From the NCBI GenBank assembly GCA_001603845.1, contig LUZZ01000012.1:1-54072 (forward strand): DNA of 54,072 nucleotides, read 5' to 3'. Origin of the DNA: Syntrophobacterales bacterium Delta_01 (GTDB lineage Bacteria > Desulfobacterota > Syntrophobacteria > Syntrophobacterales > Syntrophobacteraceae). The position numbers were made by a program, and so were the translations under genes. Positions 34,352 through 54,072 of the stretch are shown here, in pieces; the first letter of the stretch is position 1; each line of letters starts with the position of its first letter. The notes beneath the pieces are model-generated. The model was given only the letters and a program-made list of their open reading frames with translations, did no database searches and was not told where the DNA came from.

Positions 34352-34657
34352 TCACGAAGGTATGCGGGATTCTATTTTCGCCAGCCTCTCTTCGATGCTC
34401 CGGAGGGAATCGGTCTCCAGTTGCGGACGGGAACTCGTGGCGAACATCGAGTGGTTCGTCCACCAATCCATGCCCATTTCCTTTGCCCTGTCCACCGAGC
34501 AAACCACCAGCCGAATCTGGAGGGTGAGCAATTCCACATCCACGAGCTTGATCTTGATGTCGCCGGCAATGACGATGCCTTTGTCCAATACGCGTTCGAG
34601 CAGGTCAGCGAGGTTCGTGCTCTCGATGGAGTGCCGTGCAGTCCGCTGAACAGCCAT
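34352..34657 (-). CDS. gvpJ: gas vesicle protein GvpJ (GvpA/J family)
   Basis: LADLLERVLDKGIVIAGDIKIKLVDVELLTLQIRLVVCSVDRAKEMGMDWW. Confidence 0.9.
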   Translation of the reverse strand: MAVQRTARHSIESTNLADLLERVLDKGIVIAGDIKIKLVDVELLTLQIRLVVCSVDRAKEMGMDWWTNHSMFATSSRPQLETDSLRSIEERLAKIESRIPS

Positions 34658-34669
34658 GTTGCACCCTCC

Positions 34670-35059
34670 TCAGAGTAGTTTTCCAAGAGGTCCGAGGTCG
34701 AGATTGAGGTCTTCTTCGTCCAGGCCGAATTCCCTTCGGAGCCTGTCGATCTCCCGGGCCTGCATCATAAGGGTCAACCCGACCCTCTCGATTTCAGCGT
34801 CGGAGAGGCTGCCGGCGTCGATGCGCCGTATCGCCTGCCGTTCGAGGAGCTCGTGGAGGAGCTTGACCAGCGTCAGTACGAGCCTTCCAAGGCCGTTTTT
34901 AACGTTTTCCTGATTGAGATTCAGCCTTCCGGGAAGAGCGTCCGGGGTCTCGGTACCATCAGGGCAAAGGCTGCATGGGGAAGCGTCTCCGGCCTGCATT
35001 ATCCTGGCGAAATCTTTCAAATCGGCGGAGTCCACCCTCTCTCTGTCAACCCTGTTCAT
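34670..35059 (-). CDS. gvpK: gas vesicle protein GvpK
   Basis: GLGRLVLTLVKLLHELLERQAIRRIDAGSLSDAEIERVG...FGLDEEDLNLDLGPLGKLL closely follows the GvpK pattern. Confidence 0.92.
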   Translation of the reverse strand: MNRVDRERVDSADLKDFARIMQAGDASPCSLCPDGTETPDALPGRLNLNQENVKNGLGRLVLTLVKLLHELLERQAIRRIDAGSLSDAEIERVGLTLMMQAREIDRLRREFGLDEEDLNLDLGPLGKLL

Positions 35060-35270
35060 CGGCAGGCTCCATTCCCGATCCGGAGGAATCGATCATTCCC
35101 CTGGCAGTCTCGACGGAGGAGAGCACGACCTGCAGCCCCAGGTAAAGGAGATCGATGTCCGCCACCGAGATCCTGACTTCTCCGATCAGCACGGCCCCCT
35201 TATTGAGGATGCGGTCAAGCACTTCACAGAGCGTAACCTGTTCCGCGTCGACCGAAGAAAACTCCCTCAT
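35046..35270 (-). CDS. GvpS/GvpM-like gas vesicle protein (GvpA/J family)
   Basis: 74 aa from ATG 35270. VTLCEVLDRILNKGAVLIGEVRISVADIDLLYLGLQVVLSSVETAR. 14-nt overlap with gvpK. Confidence 0.85.
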   Translation of the reverse strand: MREFSSVDAEQVTLCEVLDRILNKGAVLIGEVRISVADIDLLYLGLQVVLSSVETARGMIDSSGSGMEPADEQG

Positions 35271-35317
35271 TGTCTCTTCCCCTTTCCGAAAAACCCGCCC
35301 TGTTTCGTCGCGGGCAC

Positions 35318-37249
35318 TCACTTGACGGCCTCGGCCGATGTCCCGTAAAGGGCGTTTCCAAGGCTGCGAAGCGGCCGAAGCCCGTAAAGCCTCCCCTGGC
35401 GATACACAATCACCTGCTCCTTGTCGCAAAAAGACCTTCCGAACTTTTCCCGGATCAGCATTTCACCGCGGTTCAGGACCGAGCATACGGAGCAGTCGTT
35501 CCGCGATGCGGCCATATTCAGGAACAAAAGGGGAAGATGAATTCCCATCTTCGAGCAGGCACGGACCAGGTCGGCGGTCTCCTGGAAGGCCATCTCCGTG
35601 AGGATGGCCACGGCCACCAGGGCAGAGCGGCCGGGATCGGCCAGGATCGATTTCATGTGCTTGAGTTCCTGCGATATCTTCACGAGCCGCCGGGAGATTC
35701 CGGGCAGGCGGAACACCGCCCTGTACTTCAGGAACAGTCCAAAAAAGACTTTGAGCCACTGGTCGATGAGTTCAGGGAGTTCGAGCAGCCTGATGAGGTG
35801 GCCGGTTGGAGCGGAATCGATGACGACGATGTCGTATTTCCCCTCCGCCAAAGCTCCCATGACCCCGGTGAGCGCGATGACCTCATCGGTGCCGGGCGGT
35901 GAGAGGTCGAAAATCCTATCCATCACCTCGTGGTCGAAAGCCAGTTCGAAGTCGGGCAAAGCCGATTTAAGGAATCGCTCGCAGTCCGTTCTGTATTGCA
36001 TCTTCAGGGAGTCGAACTCCGCCCGGGCGTCGATTTCCACTGCGGTGAGCCGAGGAGATACCCGTACAGGGAGAGGTCCCACCTCGATTCCCAGGCAGGC
36101 CGACAGAGAATGGGCGGGATCGACGGAAACGAGGAAGACTTTCCTGGCGCCTTGGTCCTCCGCCAGGTGCAGGGCCGTTGCGCATGCGAGCGTGGTCTTG
36201 CCCGTTCCGCCCTTTCCGGCAAAAAGCAAGAGTTCCTTTGCATGCAGCGCGGTCCTTACCCCTTCCACGTGAACCGGCGCTTCATGGCAGGTACCGCAGG
36301 AGATCGGCGTCACCCTGGAAATTTTCGTCACCCCCGTCCAGAACGAGTAAAGGTTTTCCCCGCCGGGGGCCTCGGGCGCATGGAAGGGCATTCCCCAAAG
36401 GACACACCCGGAAAAAGCGTCCGAACTTGCAATTGCGTTGAGGTTTTCACTCTGCAGGGCGTAAATGTTCGAACACAGCGGGCAGGAGCCCGGAGACCGG
36501 AGCTTGTTGACCACGATATCGGCAACCGGCGCTCCCAAGCCGTGGAGACGCTCCACCAATGCCGTCGTCTCGCTGATGCTCAATTCCTCGGCGAGCATGA
36601 CCGGCACGAAACACGAACGAACCGGGTCCCGGAGCAGGGTGTGTACCCGGTTGACCCTCTCGGACAGTTCCATGAGGAACCGGTCAAGCTCGTCCGGGCG
36701 GTAGGAACCGCTGAATGCCCTTTTCATGTAACGGTGTTTGGCCAGGAGCGCATCCAATGCCTTAAGCCACCCGCGGAGCAAATCGGGCATTTCCAGGAGC
36801 CGTATCGTGTGCCCGGTCGGCGCGGTATCCACGATGATGCGGTCATGGCCGGAATCGTCCACCCACCGGGAGATTTCGAGTAGCGCCGTGAGTTCATCCA
36901 TGCCCGGAAGGGAAAGGTCCAGGAAGCCGTTGATGTCTTCTTCGTCCAGGAACGTGCCGCGCAACGCAATCTCCCGGAGTTTGCGGCTGTGCTCGGCCTG
37001 GAATGCCGCCAGGCATTTTCGTGCATCCAGCTCCATGATCTCCAGGTTGGCGGGAAGATGGGCGTCGGCGAGGCTGTCGGTCAACGAGTGAGCGGGATCG
37101 GTGGAAAGGAGCAGGAAGGATTTCCCCGGAGAACCCACCGCCGAATGAAGGGCCGTCGCCGCGGCACAGGTGGTCTTCCCGACTCCGCCCTTCCCCCCGA
37201 AAAGCAACAGGCGCAGACCGGAATCCTGCAGAAAGGAGGGCTCGGTCAC
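35318..37249 (-). CDS. fused tandem ArsA/Get3(TRC40)-family P-loop ATPase (pseudo-dimer) embedded in the gvp operon
   Basis: Two modules, each with GKGG(V/T)GKTT, DPAHS, D(T/S)APTGH.IRLL and a downstream CxxC (CPLC, CSVC). The GTG start overlaps the gvpG stop (GTGA). Confidence 0.85.
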   Translation of the reverse strand: MTEPSFLQDSGLRLLLFGGKGGVGKTTCAAATALHSAVGSPGKSFLLLSTDPAHSLTDSLADAHLPANLEIMELDARKCLAAFQAEHSRKLREIALRGTFLDEEDINGFLDLSLPGMDELTALLEISRWVDDSGHDRIIVDTAPTGHTIRLLEMPDLLRGWLKALDALLAKHRYMKRAFSGSYRPDELDRFLMELSERVNRVHTLLRDPVRSCFVPVMLAEELSISETTALVERLHGLGAPVADIVVNKLRSPGSCPLCSNIYALQSENLNAIASSDAFSGCVLWGMPFHAPEAPGGENLYSFWTGVTKISRVTPISCGTCHEAPVHVEGVRTALHAKELLLFAGKGGTGKTTLACATALHLAEDQGARKVFLVSVDPAHSLSACLGIEVGPLPVRVSPRLTAVEIDARAEFDSLKMQYRTDCERFLKSALPDFELAFDHEVMDRIFDLSPPGTDEVIALTGVMGALAEGKYDIVVIDSAPTGHLIRLLELPELIDQWLKVFFGLFLKYRAVFRLPGISRRLVKISQELKHMKSILADPGRSALVAVAILTEMAFQETADLVRACSKMGIHLPLLFLNMAASRNDCSVCSVLNRGEMLIREKFGRSFCDKEQVIVYRQGRLYGLRPLRSLGNALYGTSAEAVK

Positions 37250-37506
37250 TCCCGTTCCCCCTCATCGCGGGCACGGACCGGCCGTCCTTCTATTTCGTCC
37301 AGGCGATCGAGAAGGTCTTTTTCCAGGATATCGAATTGATCGCTCGTGATTTTCTCCGTCTCCAGCATCATGTAAAGCTCACTGAGCCGCGCGATGATAT
37401 TTTCGGTTTCGGATGCCAATTCCTGGCGGGCGGCGTTGTGCAGTTCGCGGAAAATCCAAAGGATGCTTGAGACCGGAAAAAGCAGGACGTCATCGACGAT
37501 AAACAT
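37246..37506 (-). CDS. gvpG: gas vesicle protein GvpG
   Basis: 86 aa from ATG 37506. MFIVDDVLLFPVSSILWIFRELHNAA...LSELYMMLETEKITSDQFDILEKDLLDRL matches the GvpG pattern. Confidence 0.85.
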   Translation of the reverse strand: MFIVDDVLLFPVSSILWIFRELHNAARQELASETENIIARLSELYMMLETEKITSDQFDILEKDLLDRLDEIEGRPVRARDEGERE

Positions 37507-38320
37507 TCCGTGTTCCCCCTCGGTTCGGCAGGCCTTTCCGGGACGCCGTCGCGAGCGGCGGCGGACGGAAGTCTCGTTTTCCCCCGGCACGGGGGCTGAG
37601 CCGGATATCGACAAAGTTGTGGGGCGCCCAGGGGCCGTTGTAGTCGAACGCAAAGCTGTTATCGAAAAGCTTTGCCGCGTCGAACACGCGCTGCTCGAAC
37701 TCCGGCAGTTTCCCTCGCTCTACCAGGCAGGCCACGTTCATCACTTCGCGCTCGTTTCTCGGGCTGTTCCGTTTGGTTTCGGCGCAACACGCCGCGAGCA
37801 CAGTCTCGACGTTATCGGCGTGGACCTCCCGGTCTGCAGTGAGGATTCGCTCAAAAACACGCCCGATTTCGATCTTGTCCGCCCTGGTCGGTTCGCTCCG
37901 GCTGCCGAAAAAGCGGTCGCGCACGGCACGCAGCTCGGAATGGGTAAGAACGAAGTACTCGAAAATGTCCGGCACGTCCCACGTTACACGGAGCCCCATT
38001 TCCACCTTGTCCGCAACGCGCTGCAGTTGCTCGCAAAAGGCGGTCCGGTTGCGCGAGAGGATTTTTTGAACCGCCGCGGGGCCGTCCGCAACGATGCCGA
38101 AGCTCATGGGCAAGGGCGTGGATTCAGCCATGAGTTTGCCGAGGACTTCCTGGTGGGCCGCCAGGTTGCGGCGTTCGGGGCGGATTTCCATCTCCGATAC
38201 GTCGCTGACCACGGCCGCGATCACGCCGTCGGAGATCGTATAGACACTGCCGCCGCCGATGCCGAACGGGCCGTAGGTCCGCTCACCGGCACTTATGACG
38301 GCATAAAGATATCTTCCCAT
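37490..38320 (-). CDS. GvpF/GvpL-family gas vesicle protein (paralogue 1)
   Basis: GRYLYAVISAGE...GVIAAVVSDV...RRNLAAHQEVL...FDYNGPWAPHNF. The start is 38320 or 38344. Overlaps the gvpG start by 17 nt. Confidence 0.88.
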   Translation of the reverse strand: MGRYLYAVISAGERTYGPFGIGGGSVYTISDGVIAAVVSDVSEMEIRPERRNLAAHQEVLGKLMAESTPLPMSFGIVADGPAAVQKILSRNRTAFCEQLQRVADKVEMGLRVTWDVPDIFEYFVLTHSELRAVRDRFFGSRSEPTRADKIEIGRVFERILTADREVHADNVETVLAACCAETKRNSPRNEREVMNVACLVERGKLPEFEQRVFDAAKLFDNSFAFDYNGPWAPHNFVDIRLSPRAGGKRDFRPPPLATASRKGLPNRGGTRNVYRR

Positions 38321-38375
38321 GCTTCCTGTCTTTCTTCCCGCCATGTCTACAGCATCCTTTCAGCAGGCCCGGGCG

Positions 38376-38576
38376 CTACGGCTGGTCGGAGGTCCCCTTG
38401 TCGGCAGGAGGGGCCTCAAGCCTTTGATACAAGTGAAGGGATTTCAGTTTGCCCTGCTCCATCCTGATCTCCAGGAGCCTGCCGCATACGTAGCACTTTG
38501 CCTGCCCTTCGTAATCGGCATACACCTCTTCATCGAGTTCCAGCTTGTGGCCACACGAAAGACAGTTGATCTTCAT
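38376..38576 (-). CDS. zinc-ribbon miniprotein (unknown function)
   Basis: 66 aa with two CxxC pairs (CLSCG ... CYVCG). The ATG overlaps the stop of the upstream ORF (ATGA). Confidence 0.6.
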   Translation of the reverse strand: MKINCLSCGHKLELDEEVYADYEGQAKCYVCGRLLEIRMEQGKLKSLHLYQRLEAPPADKGTSDQP

Positions 38577-38815
38577 CTCCGGTTCTCCTTGCTCCTATGC
38601 TTGCCTTCCGCCCTGTTGCCGCCGCCGAGGTGCCGGGACCACAGGCGCGCGAGCCACGCCCGCCGCATCTGCCTTACTGAAAGGGCTGCATTCTCGAAAA
38701 AGATGCGTCCCTTATCGATTTGCACCAGCGGCAGCCCCGTGGACGGGAAACAGGCATGCAAGCCCTTGATGTTTCGGCCGGTACGGATGTGAGCGGAACT
38801 TTTGAGAGTGAGCAT
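38573..38815 (-). CDS. hypothetical 80-aa protein
   Basis: ATG 38815 preceded by GGGGGAAGG. GC-rich third codon positions. Basic C-terminus. No recognisable family. Confidence 0.45.
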   Translation of the reverse strand: MLTLKSSAHIRTGRNIKGLHACFPSTGLPLVQIDKGRIFFENAALSVRQMRRAWLARLWSRHLGGGNRAEGKHRSKENRR

Positions 38816-38916
38816 GGTCCTTCCCCCGGTGCAAAAAGTATAAAAGACGCGGGAGGCGAGTGATATTTCCCCGGCCCGCGAACATCGGCGCGGATCGGAT
38901 TGTCTATTGAAATTCC

Positions 38917-39243
38917 TCAATATTTGAGCCTGAAGCCCGCCGTCTCGTTTTGGGCCGGCCGGGTTCCGGACTCTCCGGCCTGCGGGACGAAGGGGTTCAC
39001 GCTCCTATCTTCCCTAACAACTTCCAGAATGGCCGCCATTTCGATTTCAATGTCCAGGAGGCGAGCGTCTATGTTCTTTACCCGGCTCATTGCGCTTTCC
39101 CTTTCTTTCGTGCGCCGGAACTTTTCCATTTCGAGGGAACACAGCCTCATGAACGCTTTGTATGGGAGGATCGCCTCTTGTGGCCTCCCCGAGTGGGAGC
39201 GAATGTCTTGCAGGCCTTTTACGGGCCTTACAGGAATGGGCAT
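38917..39243 (-). CDS. hypothetical 108-aa protein directly downstream of gvpN
   Basis: AAGGAGGAAG sits between the gvpN stop (39257) and ATG 39243. Charged helical core LEMEKFRRTKERESAMSRVKNIDARLLDIEIEMAAI. Confidence 0.6.
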   Translation of the reverse strand: MPIPVRPVKGLQDIRSHSGRPQEAILPYKAFMRLCSLEMEKFRRTKERESAMSRVKNIDARLLDIEIEMAAILEVVREDRSVNPFVPQAGESGTRPAQNETAGFRLKY

Positions 39244-39256
39244 GTTCTTCCTCCTT

Positions 39257-40306
39257 CTATTGCTTTTGCGCCGCCGCCTGTGGATGCCTCGCGCCCCCTC
39301 CGGGACGCTGCCCGCAAACCTTCTCGATGATTTCATCGACCTTTTGCAGCATGATGGACTGACCGTCGCGCGTAACCTTGGCGGTATCCGTGGTGAGAAC
39401 GTCGCGGCAAACCCACCGGAACACGGGATTGTCCGCCTGCGCCCTGTCGCCGCGGAGTGCAAGGACCCTGGCGACCACGATACAGGCCCGGATGGTGGGA
39501 CGGTGGTTGTTTACGCCCAGGGAGCGCAACTCTCTCACGATGTCCACGATGGTTGCGGCATCCGTTCGCGGGATGTTCGATTTGGCCGTCACAATCTGGA
39601 TTTCGGTCTCGCGATCGTAATGCTCCAGGTTGATGGTGATGAGCCTGTCCAAGAGGGCGTCCTGTGTCTTGTGCACCCCGGCGTACTCTTCCGGGTTGGA
39701 GGTAAAGATCGCCGTGAAGTCGGGATGAACCTCGAGATATCCCTCCCCTGATCTTCGCAGTTTCGGCAAGTTCAGGATGCGTTCCGAGAGCACGCTGAGA
39801 AAAGCGTTGTTTGCCTCGGGCCTCGAACGGTTGAACTCGTCGTAGATCAGCGTATCGCCGTTCTGGCAGGCCATGGTGAGCCGGTTGTCCACCCAGAAGC
39901 TCTTCATCTCCTCTTCCGTTTTCAAAACAGAGTGGATGAAATTGTCTATCAATTTCGACTTGCGGTAGCCGGCATCGCGCCCCACAAGATCGGAGCTTCC
40001 AAACTCATCGTCGCCGTGAATGAGGGTGACCGGCCGGCCGAGCTGGGCTGCGACGTGGAATGCCAGCGTGGTCTTCCCCGTTCCCGCGGGGCCCGAAAAA
40101 TGGACCGGGTAGCCCGCCGCGATGTAGGCCAGCGCACGCTCCGTCACGTGTTGCACGTACGGGGTGGAGACGAAGCCTTCGCCGGCCTCCGGCAGGATGA
40201 TGTCTCCTTCGGGCTGAACTCTTATCGTTTCGGCGGACAGGACTCTGAGGTTTTCTTTTTGCATCTTCCCATTGCTCCATTCGCGCGATTCGGGTTGCGT
40301 TTCCAT
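39257..40306 (-). CDS. gvpN: gas vesicle protein GvpN (MoxR-like AAA+ ATPase)
   Basis: 349 aa from ATG 40306. Walker A HFSGPAGTGKTT, Walker B LIYDEFNR. GvpN-typical length and context. Confidence 0.92.
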   Translation of the reverse strand: METQPESREWSNGKMQKENLRVLSAETIRVQPEGDIILPEAGEGFVSTPYVQHVTERALAYIAAGYPVHFSGPAGTGKTTLAFHVAAQLGRPVTLIHGDDEFGSSDLVGRDAGYRKSKLIDNFIHSVLKTEEEMKSFWVDNRLTMACQNGDTLIYDEFNRSRPEANNAFLSVLSERILNLPKLRRSGEGYLEVHPDFTAIFTSNPEEYAGVHKTQDALLDRLITINLEHYDRETEIQIVTAKSNIPRTDAATIVDIVRELRSLGVNNHRPTIRACIVVARVLALRGDRAQADNPVFRWVCRDVLTTDTAKVTRDGQSIMLQKVDEIIEKVCGQRPGGGARHPQAAAQKQ

Positions 40307-40644
40307 TACAAAGGCACCCATCCACGGCCCCGGCAGCGCAGGCATGCCATGGCGGAAGCCGAGCGGTCGTCGCCGCTCCCCCCACATTCCGGGCATCTCC
40401 GGACAGGACCGGCGGGCGCGGGCACAAACCCCTTGCCCCCGCAAACGGTGCAGGTGAGGGTCTTGACGGCCCCGGTGCCCCTGCAGTGGGCACACCGCAC
40501 GGAACCTTCCCGTACGGAGACGACCTTCCTTCCCCCGCAAACGCAGCAGGTGGATCGCCAGGACATGATGCCGAAGGGGTCCCTCCCGCTGCCGCCGCAG
40601 AAGGAGCACGAAACTCGAACGGTTCCTGTGCGCTCGTCCGCCAT
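40306..40644 (-). CDS. stand-alone DnaJ-CR-type zinc-finger protein (6 x CxxCxGxG)
   Basis: CSFCGGSG, CCVCGGRK, CAHCRGTG, CTVCGGKG, CPECGGSG and CLRCRGRG within 112 aa. The TAA stop overlaps the gvpN ATG (TAATG). Confidence 0.8.
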   Translation of the reverse strand: MADERTGTVRVSCSFCGGSGRDPFGIMSWRSTCCVCGGRKVVSVREGSVRCAHCRGTGAVKTLTCTVCGGKGFVPAPAGPVRRCPECGGSGDDRSASAMACLRCRGRGWVPL

Positions 40645-40691
40645 TCCATCCCCCCGTGGCCGTTGCCCGCTCGGATCGCCTTCGTGCCTGC

Positions 40692-41714
40692 TCAGTGAGA
40701 AAGCTTACCCTTTTTGGAGGGCTTCTTTTCCTCCCTGGCCTGGCTTTGTTCGGACGGAACAATCGCCTGGACGGGTTCCTGCACGGCCTGAGGTTCTACC
40801 TTTTGTTCAGCTTGGGGCTCCCCCTTCTGTTCAACTTGAGGCTCGACCTTTTGCTCAACTTGAGGTTCCACCTTCTGCTCGGCCTTACGCTCCGCATCAA
40901 ACCCTGCCTGCCACTCCGATTCCCGGCGATTTTGCTCCGTATCGGCCATCTCCCGTGGTTCGGCTTTTTGCAGGGGCAAAGAGCTGGGAGGCGTCGTACC
41001 CAACCACGCCCGGCGGGCGCCCGCAACTTCCGAGGCGAATTCCTGCCGCATGTCGGTCACCACTTTTTTCATTCCGGTTACAAAGGCCGCGCGGTCCGTC
41101 CTGGCTTTTTCGATCATGCTCCCGTAAGCCAGGCGCTGGTCCGCAAGTTCCCCGTGACAGCGGGTCTTCATTGCCGAAACGGCACCTTTTATGCCGGAGA
41201 TGAAGTTCAGGCGGCTTCTTCGGGAGCTTTTCGCCATTTGGGCGTTAGTATTCCTGACGTCTTTACGCATCCCGGCGACATTGGCTTTCAGATCGGAAAG
41301 AAACGCCAGCCGGTTTGCCCGGTCGCTTTTCGCCCCCTTTTGAAGCGAACGGCGAAAACCCGCCTGCATGCCCGATACCTCGGCCTTGAGGCCGGATACA
41401 AAAGCCGCTCTCTCCCGTTTGGTTTCCATGGACATTCTTGCGTGCGCGTCACGGATGGATGCAAGCTCCCCCCGAGACTCGGCCTTCAGCAGGGACACCG
41501 CGGTACCGATGCCGGCCAGAAACGCCAGCCGGTCGTTCCTGGTTGGCTTCGCCATCCGGGTATGAGCATTGTGAAACTCCTTCGCCATCGCCGCTACCGC
41601 CTCTCTGCGCTCCTTGGCGGAGCGGACGATATCATTCGAAAGTTCCCGGCGCGCTCCCCGCAAGCCGTTGATTTCACTGCGCAGGCGGGCCATGTCGTCT
41701 GTCAACATCCCCAT
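40692..41714 (-). CDS. GvpC-like repeat protein (putative outer-surface gas vesicle protein)
   Basis: 340 aa immediately after gvpA. Five R..R(L/A)(A/N)F(L/V/I).G(I/L/M)K..V..M units spaced 40/33/33/40 aa. Acidic/Pro-rich repetitive tail. Confidence 0.65.
   Translation of the reverse strand: MGMLTDDMARLRSEINGLRGARRELSNDIVRSAKERREAVAAMAKEFHNAHTRMAKPTRNDRLAFLAGIGTAVSLLKAESRGELASIRDAHARMSMETKRERAAFVSGLKAEVSGMQAGFRRSLQKGAKSDRANRLAFLSDLKANVAGMRKDVRNTNAQMAKSSRRSRLNFISGIKGAVSAMKTRCHGELADQRLAYGSMIEKARTDRAAFVTGMKKVVTDMRQEFASEVAGARRAWLGTTPPSSLPLQKAEPREMADTEQNRRESEWQAGFDAERKAEQKVEPQVEQKVEPQVEQKGEPQAEQKVEPQAVQEPVQAIVPSEQSQAREEKKPSKKGKLSH
40788..40883 (-). repeat. 4 x 24-nt imperfect in-frame tandem repeat encoding (K/A)(V/G)EPQ(V/A)EQ units
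   Basis: Units at 40788-40811, 40812-40835, 40836-40859 and 40860-40883. Confidence 0.85.
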
Positions 41715-41762
41715 CGTCTTCCTCCTTAGGGTTTGCCATCCGAGACCTCGGCTTCGGGTTCC

Positions 41763-41802
41763 CCGACGGGCAAGGGCTGCCGGGGCAGCCCTTGCTCGTC
41801 GG
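41763..41802 (-). promoter_or_regulatory. long GC-rich stem-loop between gvpA and the GvpC-like gene (attenuator/RNA-stabiliser candidate)
   Basis: ccgacg.gcaagggctgcc / ggcagcccttgc.cgtcgg, ~18 bp with one mismatch and a 4-nt loop. No U-tract. Confidence 0.55.
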
Positions 41803-41826
41803 CCGGGAACCCTTTGCAGGTCATAC

Positions 41827-42045
41827 TTAGGCTGGTGCAGCGGCGCTGGCCGTCAGACCAATGGCTTCAGCGTACTTCAAGTAGGTTTCGACCGAGGCGA
41901 TCACGACGCGGGCCTCAATGGACAGGAGTTCGATCCCGACCAAAGAAACCTTCGCCCAGGCATCGATCACGATGCCCTTGTCCAAAATGCGATCCACCAC
42001 TTCCGCCAGACTCGATGAATCTGTGGATTTCTGAACTTTTGCCAT
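41827..42045 (-). CDS. gvpA: major gas vesicle structural protein GvpA
   Basis: 72 aa. [55 protein letters not shown] is near-canonical GvpA. AAGGAGG lies 8 nt before the ATG. Confidence 0.97.
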
Positions 42046-42129
42046 GAATAAGACCTCCTTTGAAATTTTCAGATTCCATCAGCGCACTGATACCCTACAG
42101 CCTGTGGGCATGCCCACTGATTCGCCTTT

Positions 42130-42146
42130 AGCCAGAGACATGCCAA
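42130..42146 (-). promoter_or_regulatory. sigma-54 (-24/-12) promoter candidate for gvpA
   Basis: Minus-strand TTGGCATGTCTCTGGCT versus consensus YTGGCACG-N4-TTGCW, with GG and GC correctly spaced. About 85-100 nt upstream of the gvpA ATG. A sigma-54 activator is encoded in the locus. Confidence 0.6.
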
Positions 42147-42301
42147 GTTCAAAGGAAAGGTCAAGCCCTTGTAAGATACTTAAATTACAGGAAAACATAT
42201 CGGAGCCCCCCCATGAAGCCCCCCCCTTCGGTAAGGGCTGCCATGGACAAGGTTCCATATACTAGGGAAAAAAAACCCCTTTGCCCCTGCCGGGCGGACC
42301 C

Positions 42302-42685: not shown

Positions 42686-42696
42686 CCATTACCTTT

Positions 42697-44175: not shown

Positions 44176-44989
44176 CTTTTCTCCACCACGAGGAAGAACC
44201 GCACGCCGGCCCCCTCTTTGCCACGCGCTGCGCGATGGCGGCCGGGTCCTGCGGTTCCTCCGGGAGAACGAAGTTGTAGGGAGCCCACGGTCCGCTCAGG
44301 AGAAGCCCCGCGGAATCCCGGGCATCGAGGACATGAAATCTCCTGCGGAATTCCCCCACGGATTCTGCCGGAATCAGGAAGTGGAGCGAGATCAGGGAAG
44401 GGGGGAGAGCGAAGCGCCCTCCGCGGGTATTTCCGTCTTCTATGTGCAACTTGGCGAAAAGTCCGTCAAAAGCCTTCCGGACCCTTTCGACTGCTGCCGC
44501 TTGCGCTTCGGAGATTCTTTCTTTTTGAGAGTAGTACGCTCTTCTGGCTGCAAGGTAGCTGCGGCCGGATTCGCCGGAATGCGGGTCTTGCGCGCCGGGC
44601 GGCAAAACAGGCACGTCCCGGGATATGCATTCCCCGGAGGACGGCAGGATGCGTATTCCCATCTCCACGCGGCCTTCCAGTTCTTTCAGAAGAGCCCGGT
44701 AACGGCTGCCGTGCTCCCGGAGATGCCGGACAAGCGCGCGTTCTTCATCCAGCGCGCAGCCGTAGCGGACCGGGACTACCGTCAAGTCACGGTGCAGAAA
44801 GGCGATCACCCTTTCATAGGCAAGGACTCGAGATTGATCCGGGACGAGGTCCGGAAGGCTGATGCGGGAGACCGCCGCGCTCAGGCCGTCGGCCGTTACG
44901 AACAGGACGGGCTGCGCGTTGACACCGGCAAGGGAACAGGGCTTGCCGTCCCTGCGGCCCTGCAGGATGCAATAGAGCAGGAAGCTCAA
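44165..44989 (-). CDS. GvpF/GvpL-family gas vesicle protein (paralogue 2)
   Basis: MSFLLYCILQG...LSAAVSRISLPDL...VLAYERVI...LLSGPWAPYNF. Overlaps the kinase start by 11 nt. Confidence 0.85.
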   Translation of the reverse strand: MSFLLYCILQGRRDGKPCSLAGVNAQPVLFVTADGLSAAVSRISLPDLVPDQSRVLAYERVIAFLHRDLTVVPVRYGCALDEERALVRHLREHGSRYRALLKELEGRVEMGIRILPSSGECISRDVPVLPPGAQDPHSGESGRSYLAARRAYYSQKERISEAQAAAVERVRKAFDGLFAKLHIEDGNTRGGRFALPPSLISLHFLIPAESVGEFRRRFHVLDARDSAGLLLSGPWAPYNFVLPEEPQDPAAIAQRVAKRGPACGSSSWWRKDEH

Positions 44990-45004
44990 AGGAACGCCTC
45001 CCTT

Positions 45005-45808
45005 CTACAGGGACGGGCAAAAGCTGTAGGGGGGCCACGGCCCGGAGAACTCCAGGACCAGCCCCTGGGCTGCAAAGCGCTCATTCGCCAGGGCGATCCG
45101 CGTCCGGAAATCCCGCACGGCATCCCGCGGAACCAGAAAGGTCCAGTTCAGGATCATCTCCTTTCCCCCTCCTACGGCCTCGCGAGAAAGCACCTTGCGC
45201 TCGCGCATTTCCTCTGCAATGCGGGCCAGCTCCCCCGCCAAAATTTCACACCTTTCCCGCACCAGGCAATGCAGCTCATGAGCCCCTTTCTTGCGGATTT
45301 GCCGTTCCTGCAAATACCGGGTGCCGGGCGAGGCCGAAAGGCGCTCCGATTGCGACGAGAGCAGACCTCCGGTATACTCTTCTTCGGCCCGGGACCTGTT
45401 TAGGAGCCCCTTGACCGACCATTCTTCCTTATCCGCTACCCTGTCCAGGAAATGCCCGATTGTCCCGCAGTGCTCTTCCATTCGTCCCCAAAGGCTTTGG
45501 CGGGAGCCAAAAATGGTGCCGAGCCTTACCGGCAGTACGGGAGAGCGGCGCATAACCCGCTCGATAACCTCCTCATGCCGATAGGCGCGCAATCCCACCC
45601 ACGCGAGGTCCATCATTTTCTCTTCGGAGGAATACCCGCCACATTCCTCCCGCGGCAGCGAACTCGCCACGGCGGCGATATCCCCCCGGGTCAGCACGAA
45701 AAGAGAGCTTTTGCCGTCCACTCCATTCCCCTCAACGGCTGAAATCAGGGCCGAACGGGCGAAACAAAACAAGTAGATCGCTTCCGGATCCGGGTCCATC
45801 CGTATCAC
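45005..45808 (-). CDS. GvpF/GvpL-family gas vesicle protein (paralogue 3)
   Basis: AIYLFCFAR...DIAAVASSLP...RAYRHEEVIERVM...EFSGPWPPYSF. The start is GTG 45808 or ATG 45799. Confidence 0.85.
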   Translation of the reverse strand: MIRMDPDPEAIYLFCFARSALISAVEGNGVDGKSSLFVLTRGDIAAVASSLPREECGGYSSEEKMMDLAWVGLRAYRHEEVIERVMRRSPVLPVRLGTIFGSRQSLWGRMEEHCGTIGHFLDRVADKEEWSVKGLLNRSRAEEEYTGGLLSSQSERLSASPGTRYLQERQIRKKGAHELHCLVRERCEILAGELARIAEEMRERKVLSREAVGGGKEMILNWTFLVPRDAVRDFRTRIALANERFAAQGLVLEFSGPWPPYSFCPSL

Positions 45809-45823
45809 GCCTCCATCCCGATT

Positions 45824-45871
45824 CCCGAGCAGCGCTCCATGCCCCGGCCGGGCCGCGGGGCGCTGCTCGGG
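45824..45871 (-). promoter_or_regulatory. 12-bp-stem GC hairpin between the Cdc48-like gene and gvpF/L
   Basis: cccgagcagcgc (45824-45835) / gcgctgctcggg (45860-45871), 24-nt loop. No U-tract. Confidence 0.5.
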
Positions 45872-45890
45872 CGGTGTCCTTCCGGACCTT

Positions 45891-48029
45891 CTATGGCTTG
45901 TTGACTTCCTGCAGTGCGGCTTCGATATCTTCTGCCTCGATGAGCACGTGGACTTCGGCAGCGGGATTTTCCCGGAGGGCCTGGATGACGCGTCTGATGG
46001 CCCTGAGGCCGGCCAGGCTGCAAACCGACTCGATTTCTGCGCCGCTGAACCCCTCGGTCTTCAATGAGAGTTCCCGCGCGCTGATGCCGCCCGCAAGGGG
46101 TTTTTTGCGAAAATGTACGCTGAAAATCTTCTCCCGGTCTTCCCGGTTCGGAAGCGGGATTTCAATGATTTCGTCGAACCGGCCCGGCCTTGTGATCGCC
46201 GGATCGAGCATATCCGACCGATTCGTCGCACCGAGCACCAGGACTCCTTTCAACTCCTCGATGCCGTCGAGTTCGGTGAGGAACTGGCTGAGCACGCGTT
46301 CGGCCACATGGGAGTCTGAAGCGCCGCCGGCGCGCAAAGGAACCAGGGCATCGATTTCATCGAAAAAGAGGATGCAGGGCGATGCCTGCCTGGCCTTCCG
46401 GAACACCTCCCGCACTCCCCTTTCCGACTCCCCCACGTATTGTGACAGAAGAGCGGGGCCTTTGACCGCGATGAAGTTCACGTTGCTTTCGTTGGCTATC
46501 GCCTTGGCCAACAGGGTCTTGCCGCACCCCGGCGGGCCGAAAAGCAGAATGCCCTTGGGCGGTTTGATTCCGCCCTGCTCGAAGACCGCGGGGAACTGCA
46601 GGGGCCACTCGACGGCTTCGATCAGGCGGTCTTTGACCTCCGAGAGCCCGCCCACGTCCTCCCAGCTCAGGTCGGGCACTTCGACGAACACCTCGCGGAT
46701 GGCCGACGCCTCGACGTCTCGAAGCGCGGAGACAAAATCCCCCATGTGCACCTCGAGCTTTACGATCTGCTCGTAGGGGACGCTGGCCAGGGAAAAATCG
46801 ATGTCCGGCATGATGCGCCGCAGGGAACTCATGGCCGCTTCCCGGCAAAGCGACTCCAGGTCGGCGCCGACAAAACCGTGGGTAATCTCGGCGAGGTGTG
46901 CCAGGTCCACGTCCGGAGTCAACGGCATGCCGCGGCTGTGGATCTCCAGGATTTCAAGCCTCCCGTTCCGGTCGGGGATCGGAATGGCGATCTCCCTGTC
47001 GAACCGCCCGGGACGGCGCAGGGCCGGATCGAGAAGATGGGGGAGGTTGGTGGCCGCGATGACGATGAGGTTCTGGCGCCGGGTGAGTCCGTCCATGAGG
47101 GCCAGGAGCTGCGCCACCACCCGCTTTTCCACGTCCCCGATCACCCGCTCCCGCTTGGGGGCGATGGCGTCGATCTCGTCGAGGAAAATGATGCTGGGAC
47201 CCTTGCGGGCGGCTTCTTCGAAAATCTTTCGCAGGTGCGCTTCGCTCTCCCCGTAGAACTTGTGTATGATCTCGGGGCCGCCCACGGAAAAGAAATTCGC
47301 GTCGGTTTCATTGGCGATGGCCCGCGCGATGAGGGTCTTGCCGCATCCGGGAGGCCCGTGGAGCAGGACTCCTCTGGGCGCATCGATCCCCAACCGCTCG
47401 AACACCTCCGGATAGCGCAGCGGCAGTTCGATCATCTCCCGTATCCGGTGGAGCTGCGGCTTGAGCCCCCCGATATCCTCGTAGGACACCGTACCCGTGG
47501 CCCTTTCTTCCTGCGCTTTTCCAACCATGAGCACGGTGTTGGGAACGATCATAACGGGGCCCTTCGGGGTCGTGCTCTCCACCTTGAAATTGGCGGAACG
47601 GCTGCCGAACAGCGTGGCCCGGATGCGGTCTCCTTCAACAGCCGGCAGCCCGTCCAGCAGGCTGCCGATATACGCCAGGTCGCGATCCGCCGGCATGATG
47701 TCCGTCGGTGCGAGGATGACGCGTTCGGCGTGACGGCAGGCGATCCTGCTCACGGAAACGACCTCGTTGATTCCGGCCCCCGAGTTTTCCCTGGTCAGCC
47801 CGTCCAACTGCACCCACGACCGGCCTCTAATTTCCTTATAGGCCGGCATTGCCTTGCAGACGGTCTTCCGCTTTCCGGCGACTTCCACGATGTCGCCGAT
47901 CTCCGCCCCCAGCCTCTTCAGGTCTTCCGGGTCCATGCGCGCATAGGCGCGCCCGACGTCCTTGGGGAGGGCTTCGGTGACCTTCAGCTTGAGTTCCGTT
48001 TTTCTTGAGCCGTTCATAAGCACCACCAT
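45891..48029 (-). CDS. Cdc48/VAT-type double-ring AAA+ ATPase
   Basis: 712 aa. Cdc48-like N-domain (LKVTEALPKDVGRAYARMDPEDLKRLG...GDIVEV). Two AAA modules, each with GPPGCGKTL Walker A and a DEID Walker B. Confidence 0.92.
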   Translation of the reverse strand: MVVLMNGSRKTELKLKVTEALPKDVGRAYARMDPEDLKRLGAEIGDIVEVAGKRKTVCKAMPAYKEIRGRSWVQLDGLTRENSGAGINEVVSVSRIACRHAERVILAPTDIMPADRDLAYIGSLLDGLPAVEGDRIRATLFGSRSANFKVESTTPKGPVMIVPNTVLMVGKAQEERATGTVSYEDIGGLKPQLHRIREMIELPLRYPEVFERLGIDAPRGVLLHGPPGCGKTLIARAIANETDANFFSVGGPEIIHKFYGESEAHLRKIFEEAARKGPSIIFLDEIDAIAPKRERVIGDVEKRVVAQLLALMDGLTRRQNLIVIAATNLPHLLDPALRRPGRFDREIAIPIPDRNGRLEILEIHSRGMPLTPDVDLAHLAEITHGFVGADLESLCREAAMSSLRRIMPDIDFSLASVPYEQIVKLEVHMGDFVSALRDVEASAIREVFVEVPDLSWEDVGGLSEVKDRLIEAVEWPLQFPAVFEQGGIKPPKGILLFGPPGCGKTLLAKAIANESNVNFIAVKGPALLSQYVGESERGVREVFRKARQASPCILFFDEIDALVPLRAGGASDSHVAERVLSQFLTELDGIEELKGVLVLGATNRSDMLDPAITRPGRFDEIIEIPLPNREDREKIFSVHFRKKPLAGGISARELSLKTEGFSGAEIESVCSLAGLRAIRRVIQALRENPAAEVHVLIEAEDIEAALQEVNKP

Positions 48030-48035
48030 CCGCGT

Positions 48036-48572
48036 TCAGTGTTTCCCGCATTTGATTTCCACGATCCCGTGCTTGCAGGAGACCGAAATCTGGTCTTTTC
48101 GAAACGTGCCCGGAAGGAGTATCTCCTTGCGGTATTTCTTGTTTCCCCTCTGGGCCGAGAGAGTCAGAACATCGTCCACGAGGTCCAGTTGAACGTCTTC
48201 GGCCTCGATTCCGGGCATCTCCGCGACGATCAGCACGTGGTCCTCCTCTTCGAAAACATCCACCAGCGGTTCCCGGATCTCACGGACCACGGACTTGCCC
48301 GTCGCTTTGTCCTTGCCGATATTGCCGAAGGGCCGGACTTCGACTTCCTCCCCGCCAAGACCCACCTTGACGGAAAACCCGAAAATTCCCTTCCCCTCCT
48401 TCTTGCCGCCCTCCCATTGAAACTCGCCGCTCTTGGAGAGCTGCTCTCCTTTTTCAGCCAGATCGCTCAGCCTTTCCACAAGGTCGCTCAAGCCCCTGAA
48501 GATCCCTTCAATGCCTCCGCCGGCTTCTTCACCCTTTTTCGTACGTTTACCTTTCGTCATCTGTGTCTCCAC
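48036..48572 (-). CDS. Hsp20/alpha-crystallin family protein (GvpH-like position)
   Basis: 178 aa. C-terminal ACD: VDVFEEEDHVLIVAEMPGIEAEDVQLDLVDDVLTLSA...GIVEI. Confidence 0.85.
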   Translation of the reverse strand: METQMTKGKRTKKGEEAGGGIEGIFRGLSDLVERLSDLAEKGEQLSKSGEFQWEGGKKEGKGIFGFSVKVGLGGEEVEVRPFGNIGKDKATGKSVVREIREPLVDVFEEEDHVLIVAEMPGIEAEDVQLDLVDDVLTLSAQRGNKKYRKEILLPGTFRKDQISVSCKHGIVEIKCGKH

Positions 48573-49962
48573 CCGATTGGATTCCGTAGTGTTTTACTTT
48601 CGAAAAGATCGTCTTGTAGTCCACCTTGAGTATTCGGGCAGCCCTGGCCTTGTTCCCTCCGGTATGCTTCAACACCTCCCGGATGACCTCCCGCTCCAGG
48701 GCTTCCGTTCCCTGGCGTACCAACTCCTTCAAAGGCACCTCTTTCCATGCCGCCCGGAACTTATTTTGCGCAGGTTTCGGCACGGGCGGCTCCGCATCGG
48801 CAATGTCGAGATGCCCTTCGTTGATGAGGCGGTCGGCGACGAGGACGGCACGACGGATAACGGAGCGCAGTTGCCTCACGTTTCCGGGCCAGTTGTGCGC
48901 AACCAGCTTCTGGACGGCGCCCTCCGAGAACCCCTCCACCTTCTTGTGCAGTTCCCGGTTCGTTTTATCCAGGAAGAGCTTGGCAAGGTACGGGATGTCC
49001 TCCCTGCGCTCACGCAGGGGAGGAATGTTCAGCGTGAACTCGTTCAAGCGGAAGAAGAGGTCGAGTCGGAATGCTCCCGTCTTGGCCAGTTCCAGCAAGT
49101 CCCTGTTGGAGGCCGCAAGAAGGCGGACATCCACGGCAATGGGCTCCCGGGCGCCGACGGGGCTGGCTTTCTTTTCCTGGATCGCGCGAAGCAGCTTGGC
49201 CTGGGAACCCAGGGGCATGTTTGAAATCTCGTCCAGGAACAGGGTCCCGCCTCGCGCCACCTCGAATTTACCCGGCTTTCGGGCTACCGCTCCCGTAAAA
49301 GCCCCCCTTTCGTGGCCGAACAGCTCGCTTTCCAGAAGCGTTTCCGGTATCGACCCGCAATCGACCGGGACAAAAGGCCCGGTCCGCGGACTGGCCAGGT
49401 GGATGGCGCGGGCAACGAGCTCCTTTCCCGACCCCGTCTCTCCGTGAATGACCACGCTGAAATCGGAGCGCGCCACCAGATTGACATCGGAAATGAGGCG
49501 AGCGACCACGTCGCTGTGTCCCATGGTTTGCCGCAGGTGCGAGGCGTCCTGCTCATGGGCCGAAAGATGCTTTATCGTCTGTTTCAGCCTGCGCTCCGCC
49601 AACGCCCTGCGCACGACCCGGACGACTTCGTAGTGGTTGAACGGTTTGGCCAGGTAGTCGTGGGCCCCGGCCCTCATTGCCTCCACCGCCCCGGGGACGT
49701 CGGCATACCCGGTGATCATGATGACCGGAAGCTCAGGATGTTTTTCCTTGAGACTCCGCATTACCTGCATCCCGTCCATGCCCGGCATCTTGAAATCCAG
49801 AAGGAGGACGTCGGGTTCCTTGGATGTGATCGAATCGAGCGCCGCCGCCCCATGGTTGACCGTCTCGACTTCAAAACTCTCCTCCCTCATGAGACGGGCA
49901 AGTATCGAACAGTGGGCTTCCTCATCGTCGGCTACCAGGATCCTGGCTTCAAACTCACTCAT
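48547..49962 (-). CDS. sigma-54-dependent response regulator (REC-AAA+-Fis HTH, NtrC family)
   Basis: REC (ILVADDEE...LLLDFKMPGMDG). AAA+ with GETGSGKE and the ESELFGHERGAFTGA (GAFTGA) motif. C-terminal HTH GGNKARAARILKVDYKT. Confidence 0.93.
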   Translation of the reverse strand: MSEFEARILVADDEEAHCSILARLMREESFEVETVNHGAAALDSITSKEPDVLLLDFKMPGMDGMQVMRSLKEKHPELPVIMITGYADVPGAVEAMRAGAHDYLAKPFNHYEVVRVVRRALAERRLKQTIKHLSAHEQDASHLRQTMGHSDVVARLISDVNLVARSDFSVVIHGETGSGKELVARAIHLASPRTGPFVPVDCGSIPETLLESELFGHERGAFTGAVARKPGKFEVARGGTLFLDEISNMPLGSQAKLLRAIQEKKASPVGAREPIAVDVRLLAASNRDLLELAKTGAFRLDLFFRLNEFTLNIPPLRERREDIPYLAKLFLDKTNRELHKKVEGFSEGAVQKLVAHNWPGNVRQLRSVIRRAVLVADRLINEGHLDIADAEPPVPKPAQNKFRAAWKEVPLKELVRQGTEALEREVIREVLKHTGGNKARAARILKVDYKTIFSKVKHYGIQSGGDTDDER

Positions 49963-50613
49963 CTATTCCGTTCCTTTGCCGCCCGGAGCATCCAGTGCGG
50001 GCATCGTGACCCGAATGTCTTCGTCAAGAAGACCTTGGAGCGAGTGAAGCATACCCAGGAAAAGAATGCCCGTTTCACCACCGCGAAGAGTGGCGTTGAT
50101 CCGGGCGGCGATAAAACGGTCCCGCCTTTTGAGCAGCGTTTCAGCCTCGCCTGTCCCGAGGGTCCCGGCCTTGGAAACCGGGCGGCGTCCGGGCGGCGAA
50201 AGGCTCTGACGAATATTTTCATATTCTTCCCTGAGCAATTCGCTCGACTCGGTCCCCATGAGGATCGCGCCTTTTTCAATCAACCGCACCAGCAGGCGGT
50301 GATTCCGGCTCCCTTTCCCGGCGAGTTCTTCTACGATTTCGCGCTCCCGTCCACACACCGGAAGCCCGTCCTGGTAGAGACGGACTTTATCGAACGAAAG
50401 CCCGGATCGCTCGACAACCCGCTCGATTTCACTCCACCTTTGATCGATCGCCCTCAACTTCTGCCTCCACGCCTTGGCGCCCAGCCTGCTCGCCGTTGCA
50501 CGCTGCACGGCCTCGCTGAGATTTCCCATATCTTCCAGGGTGTGGATGATGGGGATATGAATGAGCCTCCTCGCGCCTGCCGCGCCATCCCTTTCCTCTC
50601 TTTTTTCCTCCAT
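49963..50613 (-). CDS. hypothetical protein with weak TraB/PrgY/Tiki-superfamily-like motifs; first ORF of the locus
   Basis: 216 aa. The stop abuts the activator ATG (49962/49963). Motifs IHIPIIHT ... RRDRFIAARI ... ILFLGMLH. Confidence 0.55.
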   Translation of the reverse strand: MEEKREERDGAAGARRLIHIPIIHTLEDMGNLSEAVQRATASRLGAKAWRQKLRAIDQRWSEIERVVERSGLSFDKVRLYQDGLPVCGREREIVEELAGKGSRNHRLLVRLIEKGAILMGTESSELLREEYENIRQSLSPPGRRPVSKAGTLGTGEAETLLKRRDRFIAARINATLRGGETGILFLGMLHSLQGLLDEDIRVTMPALDAPGGKGTE

Positions 50614-54014: not shown

Positions 54015-54072
54015 GCCCGCATTATTCATGAGGTTTTGGGCCGGTGAGCCGAAATCCAAGTATAGACGGTAT

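Follow-up and report, generated by a model that had tools for sequence, protein, structure and literature searches.

Does contig LUZZ01000012.1 of Syntrophobacterales bacterium Delta_01 (assembly GCA_001603845.1) encode a working gas-vesicle system, and if so, of what kind? Within the 54,072 nucleotides (nt) analyzed here (positions 1 to 54,072, hereafter the window), a previous sequence-only reading had placed a complete single-strand gas-vesicle (gvp) locus at about 34352-50613, divided into a structural and a regulatory/chaperone module, similar in gene order to that of Serratia and interrupted by inserted genes. The present analysis indicates that positions 34352-50613 of the minus strand (~16 kb) very probably constitute a functional, chromosomal gas-vesicle biogenesis locus of the 'Serratia/Desulfomonile' type, organized as two consecutive co-directional transcription units. 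The locus is one more example of a cluster type that is already known and very widespread; the system itself is of no new kind.

Gas-vesicle genes in the window

All minus-strand open reading frames (ORFs) between 34.0 and 51.1 kb were translated and then scanned against Pfam and NCBIfam. The locus is complete and intact: the curated cut-offs were exceeded by GvpA, two more GvpA-family proteins, three GvpF/L proteins, GvpG, GvpK and GvpN, and likewise by an NtrC-type sigma-54 activator, a PAS histidine kinase, a lone receiver, an Hsp20 protein and a CDC48-type AAA+ ATPase. Alongside the shell gene, the accessory set is present, consisting of gvpF/L, gvpG, gvpK, gvpN and two GvpA-related minor proteins (J and M/S), each of them above its cut-off. 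The genes lie at or near the positions where the sequence-only reading had put them and none of the core ORFs fell below its family threshold, so that the proposal of a complete single-strand locus withstood the profile search. Relatives were collected by scanning one genome of each GTDB species with a GvpN profile, which confirmed at least 481 relatives among 599 stretches; the layout counts given below refer to the best 80 of these at least 481 GvpN relatives, with the window proteins mapped onto their loci by tblastn.

The structural module contains, in the direction of transcription, the following gas-vesicle genes (lengths in amino acids, aa):

41827-42045, minus strand: gvpA, major shell protein, 72 aa (PF00741, 61.4 bits; cut-off 25)
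40692-41714, minus strand: GvpC-like repeat protein, 340 aa (by position and repeat architecture)
39257-40306, minus strand: gvpN, AAA+ (AAA_5) ATPase (TIGR02640, 350.5 bits; cut-off 266.8)
37490-38344, minus strand: GvpF/L paralogue at the gvpF1 position (PF06386, 218.3 bits; cut-off 23.6)
37246-37506, minus strand: gvpG (PF05120, 49.9 bits; cut-off 30.6)
35046-35270, minus strand: GvpA-family minor protein at the gvpA2/gvpS/gvpM position (PF00741, 58.5 bits)
34670-35059, minus strand: gvpK (PF05121, 111.1 bits; cut-off 25)
34352-34657, minus strand: GvpA-family minor protein at the gvpA3/gvpJ position (PF00741, 62.3 bits; best haloarchaeal sub-model GvpJ)

The GvpA of the window aligned over 69 residues to the GvpA of Anabaena flos-aquae solved by cryo-electron microscopy (8gbs, E 1.6e-31). 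The identical 72-aa protein is recorded in 620 blocks of public assemblies, and remains 100% identical even on contigs whose other gvp proteins share only 35-80% with those of the window, which points to extreme purifying selection or gene exchange. The GvpF/L protein encoded at 37490-38344 matches the GvpF structure 6l5d of the PDB (E 2.9e-14), and GvpG begins with a hydrophobic helix (maximum KD19 1.93, at residue 1). The GvpC-like protein is built of repeats spaced 33-40 aa, anchored at residues 62, 102, 168 and 208 (pattern match) with one more at about 135 (by eye), plus four C-terminal 8-aa repeats (EQKVEPQV-like), and is detectable at the same position in 28 of 70 related loci.

The upstream, regulatory/chaperone module carries the following genes:

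48547-49962, minus strand: gvrA-like NtrC-family sigma-54 activator (Sigma54_activat 207.6, Response_reg 107.6, HTH_8 36.6 bits)
48036-48572, minus strand: Hsp20/alpha-crystallin protein at the gvpH position (HSP20, 26.1 bits; cut-off 20.8)
45891-48029, minus strand: CDC48-type double-ring AAA+ ATPase at the gvpZ position (TIGR01243, 880 bits; cut-off 802.65)
45005-45808, minus strand: GvpF/L paralogue at the gvpF2 position (PF06386, 169.9 bits)
44165-44989, minus strand: GvpF/L paralogue at the gvpF3 position (PF06386, 141.8 bits)
42697-44175, minus strand: gvrB-like cytoplasmic PAS-PAS-HisKA-HATPase histidine kinase (PAS, HisKA and HATPase domains)
42302-42685, minus strand: gvrC-like single-domain response regulator (Response_reg, 71.3 bits; no output domain)

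The three regulatory types are thus all found inside the cluster, in the published order gvrA...gvrB-gvrC. The activator is arranged as REC - AAA+ sigma54 domain - HTH_8, has a GAFTGA motif in its translation and shares 56-73% identity with its counterparts in the related contigs L001-L010. The Hsp20 protein reached 16.6 bits with the GvpH model, under its cut-off of 22; a homologue 59% identical to it, in L009, bears a precomputed PF05455 GvpH match. The CDC48-type protein comprises CDC48_N, CDC48_2 and two AAA domains, and is 60% identical to the AAA ATPase of a Methylocella cluster. The kinase possesses an intact H-box (AHEIRNPL) and no hydrophobic segment (maximum KD19 1.31); because it is devoid of a membrane segment, it probably senses a cytoplasmic cue via its PAS domains.

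The regulatory/chaperone module, gvrA-hsp20-cdc48-gvpF-gvpF-HK-REC (HK, histidine kinase; REC, receiver), precedes the structural module, gvpA-C-like-...-N-...-F-G-...-A2-K-A3, so that domain content and gene order bear out the two-module layout suggested earlier. Throughout the locus the intergenic gaps are short or the genes overlap, with several start/stop overlaps, the exceptions being the 256 nt before gvpA and the 112 nt after it. Genes outside the described gvp families complete the two modules and are treated further below: orf216 at the head of the upstream module, znf112, orf108, orf80 and zn66 on either side of gvpN, and a Get3-like ATPase gene between gvpG and gvpA2. Plus-strand ORFs of 357-541 aa inside the locus were rejected as genes, having no family match and lying antisense to well-supported genes at 60% GC, and the ORFs at 42079-42258 and 45805-46023 were treated as spurious, with no counterpart in the related contigs L001-L010.

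Sequence elements flanking gvpA

Two elements were identified next to the shell gene:

42130-42145, minus strand: sigma-54 type -24/-12 promoter element TGGCATGTCTCTGGCT, 100 nt upstream of the gvpA ATG
41756-41812, minus strand: GC-rich long hairpin directly after gvpA, with 19-nt arms that are 95% complementary

The element TGGCATGTCTCTGGCT has the GG-N10-GC spacing of a sigma-54 promoter, sits in the sole long intergenic gap of the locus and is the single exact match to TGGCAYN5TKGCW in the 54-kb window. An element scoring at least 10/12, mostly 85-100 nt upstream of gvpA, was present in 44 of 75 related loci, compared with 1 of 75 shuffled upstream regions. It is a predicted sigma-54 promoter, placed upstream of gvpA as in Serratia-type loci.

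The hairpin has a predicted folding energy of -58.2 kcal/mol (z -4.1) and belongs to no Rfam family, a scan of 33-54 kb against Rfam having given no match. The 100 nt that follow gvpA fold with z < -2 in 47 of 52 species loci versus 2 of 42 internal controls. These data fit an mRNA 3'-end stabilizer or partial terminator, which would raise the ratio of gvpA to accessory transcripts.

Conservation of the gene order

The same synteny was observed in all of ten long contigs with an identical GvpA. Among the best 80 loci, 49 carry gvrA and gvpA on one strand with gvrA upstream, and these gvrA-first loci contain Hsp20 (49/49), the CDC48 AAA+ ATPase (48) and two GvpF/L genes (45), with kinase and receiver between gvrA and gvpA in 31 of them. 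The 80 loci include Syntrophobacteraceae, Syntrophaceae, Desulfomonile, Geobacter, Acidobacteriota, Verrucomicrobiota and Planctomycetota, and further Anaerolineales, Methylomirabilia, Nitrospinia, Treponemataceae and several other groups. To judge from these genomes, the architecture is a common one in uncultured anaerobes of many phyla. Dozens of species belonging to many phyla keep this gene order although their proteins are only 35-84% identical, which indicates that purifying selection acts on the whole unit. The locus of the window represents a distinct lineage, because its proteins, GvpA excepted, are at most 84% identical to those of any other locus compared.

Variants of the layout were also recorded. 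No kinase or receiver was detected between gvpF and gvpA in the acidobacterial loci L037, L042, L045, L064, L076, L085 and L087, metagenome-assembled genomes (MAGs) in which a kinase homologue usually stands on the opposite strand, upstream of orf216; L037, L042, L045, L064 and L085 also have the zn66 gene between gvpA and gvpN. A second Hsp20 gene follows the CDC48 gene in L028, L035, L036 and L086 (Methylomirabilia, Gemmatimonas, Poribacteria and an unclassified bacterium), and an extra receiver gene does so in L028, L035 and L036, not in L086.

Comparison with known gas-vesicle clusters

In Serratia sp. ATCC 39006 the genes are ordered gvpA1-C-N-V-F1-G-W-A2-K-X-A3-Y / gvrA-gvpH-Z-F2-F3-gvrB-gvrC (PMC9501494, Table 1; PMC4982088), GvpW being GvpL-like and GvpX GvpJ-like (PMC11267810). 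GvrA, GvrB and GvrC are each required there for gvpA1 transcription, a sigma-54 site precedes gvpA1, and gvpV is needed for bicones to grow into cylinders (PMC4982088). Tashiro et al. (2016) described a composition common to beta-, gamma- and delta-proteobacteria (PMC4982088), with the gvrA operon before the gvpA operon in Desulfomonile tiedjei DCB-1 and Psychromonas ingrahamii 37 (Fig. 1 of the same article).

The window locus resembles that of Serratia in size (~16 kb compared with 16.6 kb), in its two modules, in its three GvpA-family and three GvpF/L genes, in its NtrC-type activator, kinase, lone receiver and Hsp20 at the gvpH position, and in the sigma-54 element before gvpA. Gene order within each module is the same and agrees with the published one, as the sequence-only reading had proposed, but the order of the modules is inverted (gvrA unit first), as published for other species, and equivalents of GvpY and, there being only three GvpF/L and three GvpA-family genes, of GvpW and GvpX are absent. 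As the missing genes are non-essential in Serratia, their absence lowers the identity with the Serratia set and not the membership in the broader type. The Get3-like tandem ATPase fills the slot between gvpG and gvpA2, znf112, orf80, zn66 and orf216 are extra genes with respect to Serratia, and no quorum-sensing input is evident.

A closer parallel in module order is offered by D. tiedjei, also a strictly anaerobic delta-proteobacterium, whose gvrA operon comes first according to the published statement. The Desulfomonile MAG loci L069 and L072 read gvrA-hsp20-cdc48-F-F-HK-REC-gvpA-C-like-N-orf109-zn66-F-G-A2-K-A3, and the shorter L063 and L065 keep the same order over the parts covered; all four have znf112 upstream of gvpN, as here, but those that reach the position are without the Get3-like ATPase and the 80-aa ORF. 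The novelty implied by the earlier reading did not survive, given that dozens of species-level genomes share the layout, which had also been published for D. tiedjei and P. ingrahamii (PMC4982088).

Two plasmid-borne clusters share single components with the window. A Methylocella tundrae plasmid encodes a sigma-54 regulator, a GvpF/L, a kinase, a receiver, gvpA, a gene following gvpN, Hsp20, an orf216 homologue and an AAA+ ATPase. On plasmid p4 of Nostoc sphaeroides, a two-domain ArsA-family ATPase (634 aa) and then an AAA ATPase (613 aa) end the gvp cluster, and they are 31% and 49% identical, respectively, to the Get3-like and CDC48-type proteins of the window. The cyanobacterial clusters (Nostoc/Anabaena) differ in having no sigma-54/two-component module, an order A-A-C-N-J-K-F-..., and a bona fide GvpC as well as a GvpW, while znf112, orf216 and orf108 are missing from them.

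Proposed function of the locus

Gene content, family membership, the conserved synteny, the promoter-like element and the hairpin are observed in the sequences; from them we infer the signalling flow, the operon boundaries, the chaperone roles and vesicle formation as follows. The first unit, orf216-gvrA-hsp20-cdc48-gvpF-gvpF-gvrB-gvrC, would provide a control circuit (two-component/sigma-54), two nucleation-type GvpF/L proteins and general chaperones. GvrB, a cytoplasmic PAS kinase, would sense an intracellular cue and control phosphorylation of the GvrA receiver domain, with the lone receiver GvrC as a partner or phosphate sink, and activated GvrA would drive the sigma-54 RNA polymerase at the TGGCAT-N5-TGGCT promoter 100 nt upstream of gvpA. 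The second unit, gvpA-gvpC-like-znf112-gvpN-orf108-orf80-zn66-gvpF-gvpG-get3-like-gvpA2-gvpK-gvpA3, would yield the shell protein GvpA in excess, aided by the strong hairpin after its gene, together with the outer repeat protein, the GvpN ATPase and an assembly set of GvpF/G/J/K/S type. Most likely, Hsp20 and the CDC48-type unfoldase, along with the putatively zinc-bridged Get3-like ATPase and the DnaJ-type zinc finger, would act as holdases or in quality control for the hydrophobic GvpA-family proteins and GvpG.

Several observations weigh against this scheme. Serratia in its native state does not require gvpH or gvpZ (PMC4982088), orf108 and the CDC48 AAA+ ATPase correspond to GvpV and GvpZ by position, and the Get3-like ATPase is missing from 16 of 57 related loci. 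The GvpC-like label, taken over from the sequence-only reading, is based on position and repeat architecture; neither a GvpC model nor any other Pfam or NCBIfam family matched the protein, and its BLASTP similarity to Nostoc GvpC is not significant (E 0.079). Regarding transcription, rpoN is not in the window, no convincing minus-strand match to the sigma-70 consensus was found upstream of 50613, and the sigma-70 and terminator consensus scans returned counts at chance level. The interval between gvrC and gvpA holds a T-run only and no canonical terminator, and read-through from gvrC into gvpA is therefore possible.

Alternatively, as has been suggested for Streptomyces, the gvp cluster might be cryptic or repurposed, forming no buoyant vesicles or serving a purpose other than flotation. 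Such a reading draws on the provenance of the closest relatives, which are MAGs from bogs, fens, peat and soils and not from open water, on the fact that gvp clusters do not imply vesicles in every bacterium (Tashiro et al., PMC4982088), and on the failure in E. coli of most clusters tested by Hurt et al. On the other hand, the Serratia-essential classes missing in Streptomyces are present here (gvpN, a third GvpF/L paralogue, that of the gvpF2 position, gvrA, gvrB and gvrC), together with a gene at the gvpV position, and GvpA is canonical and extremely conserved. Furthermore, strict anaerobes such as Desulfobacterium vacuolatum are reported as vesicle formers, and the steep vertical redox gradients of waterlogged peat are a setting in which buoyancy would be useful. 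We therefore regard a cryptic or repurposed cluster as unlikely and favor a locus that directs vesicle biogenesis.

The Get3-like ATPase and other accessory genes

The functional reading leaves a set of genes to be placed, which are the following:

49963-50613, minus strand: orf216, first gene of the upstream module, conserved protein of ~200 aa (by synteny; probably remotely TraB/PrgY/GumN-like)
40306-40644, minus strand: znf112, DnaJ-type cysteine-rich protein, 112 aa (DnaJ_CXXCXGXG PF00684, 34.3 bits, cut-off 32.7; Anti-TRAP, 35.5 bits, cut-off 32)
38917-39243, minus strand: orf108, 108-aa protein at the gvpV position, directly after gvpN
38573-38815, minus strand: orf80, conserved small ORF of 80 aa (C-terminal ~62 residues conserved)
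38376-38576, minus strand: zn66, C4 zinc-ribbon protein, 66 aa (Zn_ribbon_4, 20.7 bits, under the cut-off of 30.3)
35318-37249, minus strand: tandem (pseudo-dimeric) Get3/TRC40/ArsA-family ATPase, 643 aa (TIGR00345 GET3_arsA_TRC40, 345.6 bits; cut-off 135)

The best solved relatives of the tandem ATPase are Chlamydomonas ARSA1 (5zme) and archaeal Get3 (3zq6 and 3ug6). Alignment to Get3 proteins runs over the full length, and true ArsA structures align only over the nucleotide-binding core. Each half contains a P-loop, switch I, switch II and a CxxC, all invariant or nearly so in 120 relatives, and the CPLC of the N-half (residues 256-259) aligned with the CxxC of archaeal Get3. In Get3 the CxxC coordinates zinc at the dimer interface. 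By these sequence features the protein is a member of the Get3/TRC40 family, with a deviant Walker A P-loop, both switches, the helical subdomain and a predicted CxxC zinc site, and its tandem pseudo-dimeric form resembles ARSA1. It differs from the classical systems in being encoded inside a gas-vesicle operon, with no classical C-terminally anchored client and no Get1/2-type receptor evident; hydrophobicity profiles revealed no C-terminally anchored protein encoded in the locus. The most hydrophobic segments in the locus are the N-terminus of GvpG and the cores of the GvpA-family proteins, which are plausible clients of the ATPase.

It is very improbable that this ArsA-family gene is a mere passenger in a gvp operon, encoding an arsenite-pump ATPase, or that the other unplaced genes are unrelated passengers. 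Public annotations do call its relatives 'arsenite-transporting ATPase', and the 16 loci without it would allow for such a passenger. The protein, however, fails the ArsA equivalog TIGR04291 (166 bits; cut-off 650) but passes the subfamily model for GET3/TRC40, aligns over its full length with Get3 proteins and with ArsA structures only over the core, and keeps the Get3-type CxxC in both halves. No arsB, acr3, arsR or arsD gene exists in the window. Across phyla, 41 of 57 species loci have the gene in a fixed place between gvpG and gvpA2, and its start overlaps the gvpG stop by 4 nt. The genes orf216, orf108, zn66 and znf112 are conserved in position as well. An arsenic-resistance insert was rejected on these grounds. 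What the sequence-only reading had taken for inserted genes are instead conserved members of the cluster, which hold their positions across many phyla. Among the MAG loci of the Syntrophobacteraceae, the Get3-like gene is present in L014, L017, L018 and L020 and absent from L011-L013, L015 and L016, so that it must have been gained or lost within the family.

Two-domain ArsA homologues of ~637 aa inside gvp operons, together with hsp20, were previously noted by Castillo and Saier (2010) in cyanobacteria, Chlorobi/Bacteroidetes, a delta-proteobacterium and an acidobacterium, and were proposed to energize a step of biogenesis (PMC2963123). Both the layout and the ArsA-type "extra" gene are hence already in the literature, neither of them characterized functionally in this form.

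The znf112 gene occupies, in another frame, an apparent gap of ~430 nt between the GvpC-like gene and gvpN. Its product has six CxxCxGxG motifs (by eye), kept in 49 of the 57 loci with a znf112 match, and no J-domain, hence it is not a DnaJ itself. Of the 80 species loci, 47 have a homologue directly upstream of gvpN, 57-75% identical and free of stop codons, and the corresponding stretch is blank in the public gene calls of L001-L005 and L007-L010. We conclude that znf112 is a real, conserved and largely unannotated member of the cluster. The gene list of the earlier reading was right in the genes that it claimed but omitted znf112 (40306-40644), and its gvpN start has been corrected to 40306, where the TAA stop of znf112 overlaps an ATG (TAATG) possibly starting gvpN, or to 40264.

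Of the smaller genes, one of the orf108 type follows gvpN in 68 of 70 loci, including a Methylocella gene with 40% identity over 73 residues. No Pfam or NCBIfam family matched orf108, a protein sequence search gave close relatives only, and its AF2 model (a single long helix at residues 28-82, pLDDT 67) had no fold match in the PDB by Foldseek. The orf80 product, likewise with no family match, was detected in 44 of 70 loci, and the gene calls for L003 and L004 include it with a length of 70-72 aa. Of 70 loci, 52 have the zn66 gene between gvpN and gvpF, and 5 others have it between gvpA and gvpN.

The family of orf216 comprises 857 representative clusters. The protein itself had no Pfam or NCBIfam match above threshold, TraB_PrgY_gumN (PF01963) included, but 25 of 63 family members match TraB_PrgY_gumN weakly (best E 1.3e-4) and any other family is matched by at most 3, so that orf216 is probably a remote member of the hydrolase-like TraB/PrgY/GumN superfamily. 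A profile search against PDB sequences gave no match, and the AF2 single-sequence model (pLDDT 38) was unusable. In at least 27 species loci the gene immediately precedes gvrA, and a homologue with 42% identity adjoins Hsp20 in the M. tundrae plasmid cluster.

Heterologous gas-vesicle expression leads to proteotoxic stress (PMC12848028), and this fits gvp clusters that carry their own chaperones. It is conceivable, although we hold it to be doubtful, that in the widespread 'anaerobe/soil' form of the cluster Hsp20, the CDC48-type ATPase, the tandem Get3-type ATPase and the DnaJ-type zinc finger form a four-part proteostasis kit that holds the GvpA-family proteins and GvpG and delivers them to the growing shell. 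Our literature search turned up no work that connects gas vesicles to either Get3 or a zinc finger of the DnaJ type.

Genomic context and host

The locus is flanked by genes for ThrRS, PheT, PurL, an acyl-CoA dehydrogenase, and HdrA-like and MvhD/FlpD-like proteins, and is bounded on its 3' side by a convergent squalene-hopene cyclase gene (31752-33893). The ThrRS shares 83-92% identity with proteins of Syntrophobacteraceae MAGs and 81% with that of Syntrophobacter sp. SbD2, and the nearest GvpN sequences, among the matches listed, are those of Syntrophobacteraceae MAGs from bogs, peat and Danish soils. On this evidence the host is a member of the Syntrophobacteraceae, by all appearances an uncultured anaerobe of soil or peat, and the anaerobe-like background noted earlier is confirmed; the flanking genes, too, agree with the earlier description. 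A search of the literature found no reports of gas vesicles in this family.

Upstream of the locus, at 50614-54072, the GC content falls to 0.51-0.53. The ORFs found there at 50664-51068, 51354-51626 and 52384-53259 had no family matches, and the first and last of them no counterpart in related loci by tblastn; the region may be a variable region or an island border. No integrase or transposase was seen adjoining the gvp cluster, and the sole tRNA gene of the window, tRNA-Arg (CCT) at 22730-22803 on the plus strand, is far from the locus.

Biological significance

The most useful by-products of this analysis are the conserved, mostly unannotated zinc-finger gene, the Get3-type reading of "ArsA", and the conserved promoter and hairpin around gvpA. 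The Get3-like ATPase, the zinc finger, the probably TraB-like orf216 and the small ORFs can be described as conserved architecture, which mainly offers a parts list for engineering gas vesicles as acoustic reporters, an application in which proteotoxic stress limits assembly in heterologous hosts. The one part that may gain in interest is the chaperone-kit hypothesis: if true, a bacterial Get3 homologue would serve a non-membrane organelle, and the helper genes might let recalcitrant gas-vesicle clusters be expressed in heterologous hosts. For the family, the locus adds a well-resolved cluster of the Serratia/Desulfomonile type from the Syntrophobacteraceae, anaerobes that live in peat and wet soils as syntrophs or sulfate reducers, and it is one more sign that bacteria of waterlogged anoxic soils may commonly regulate their buoyancy.

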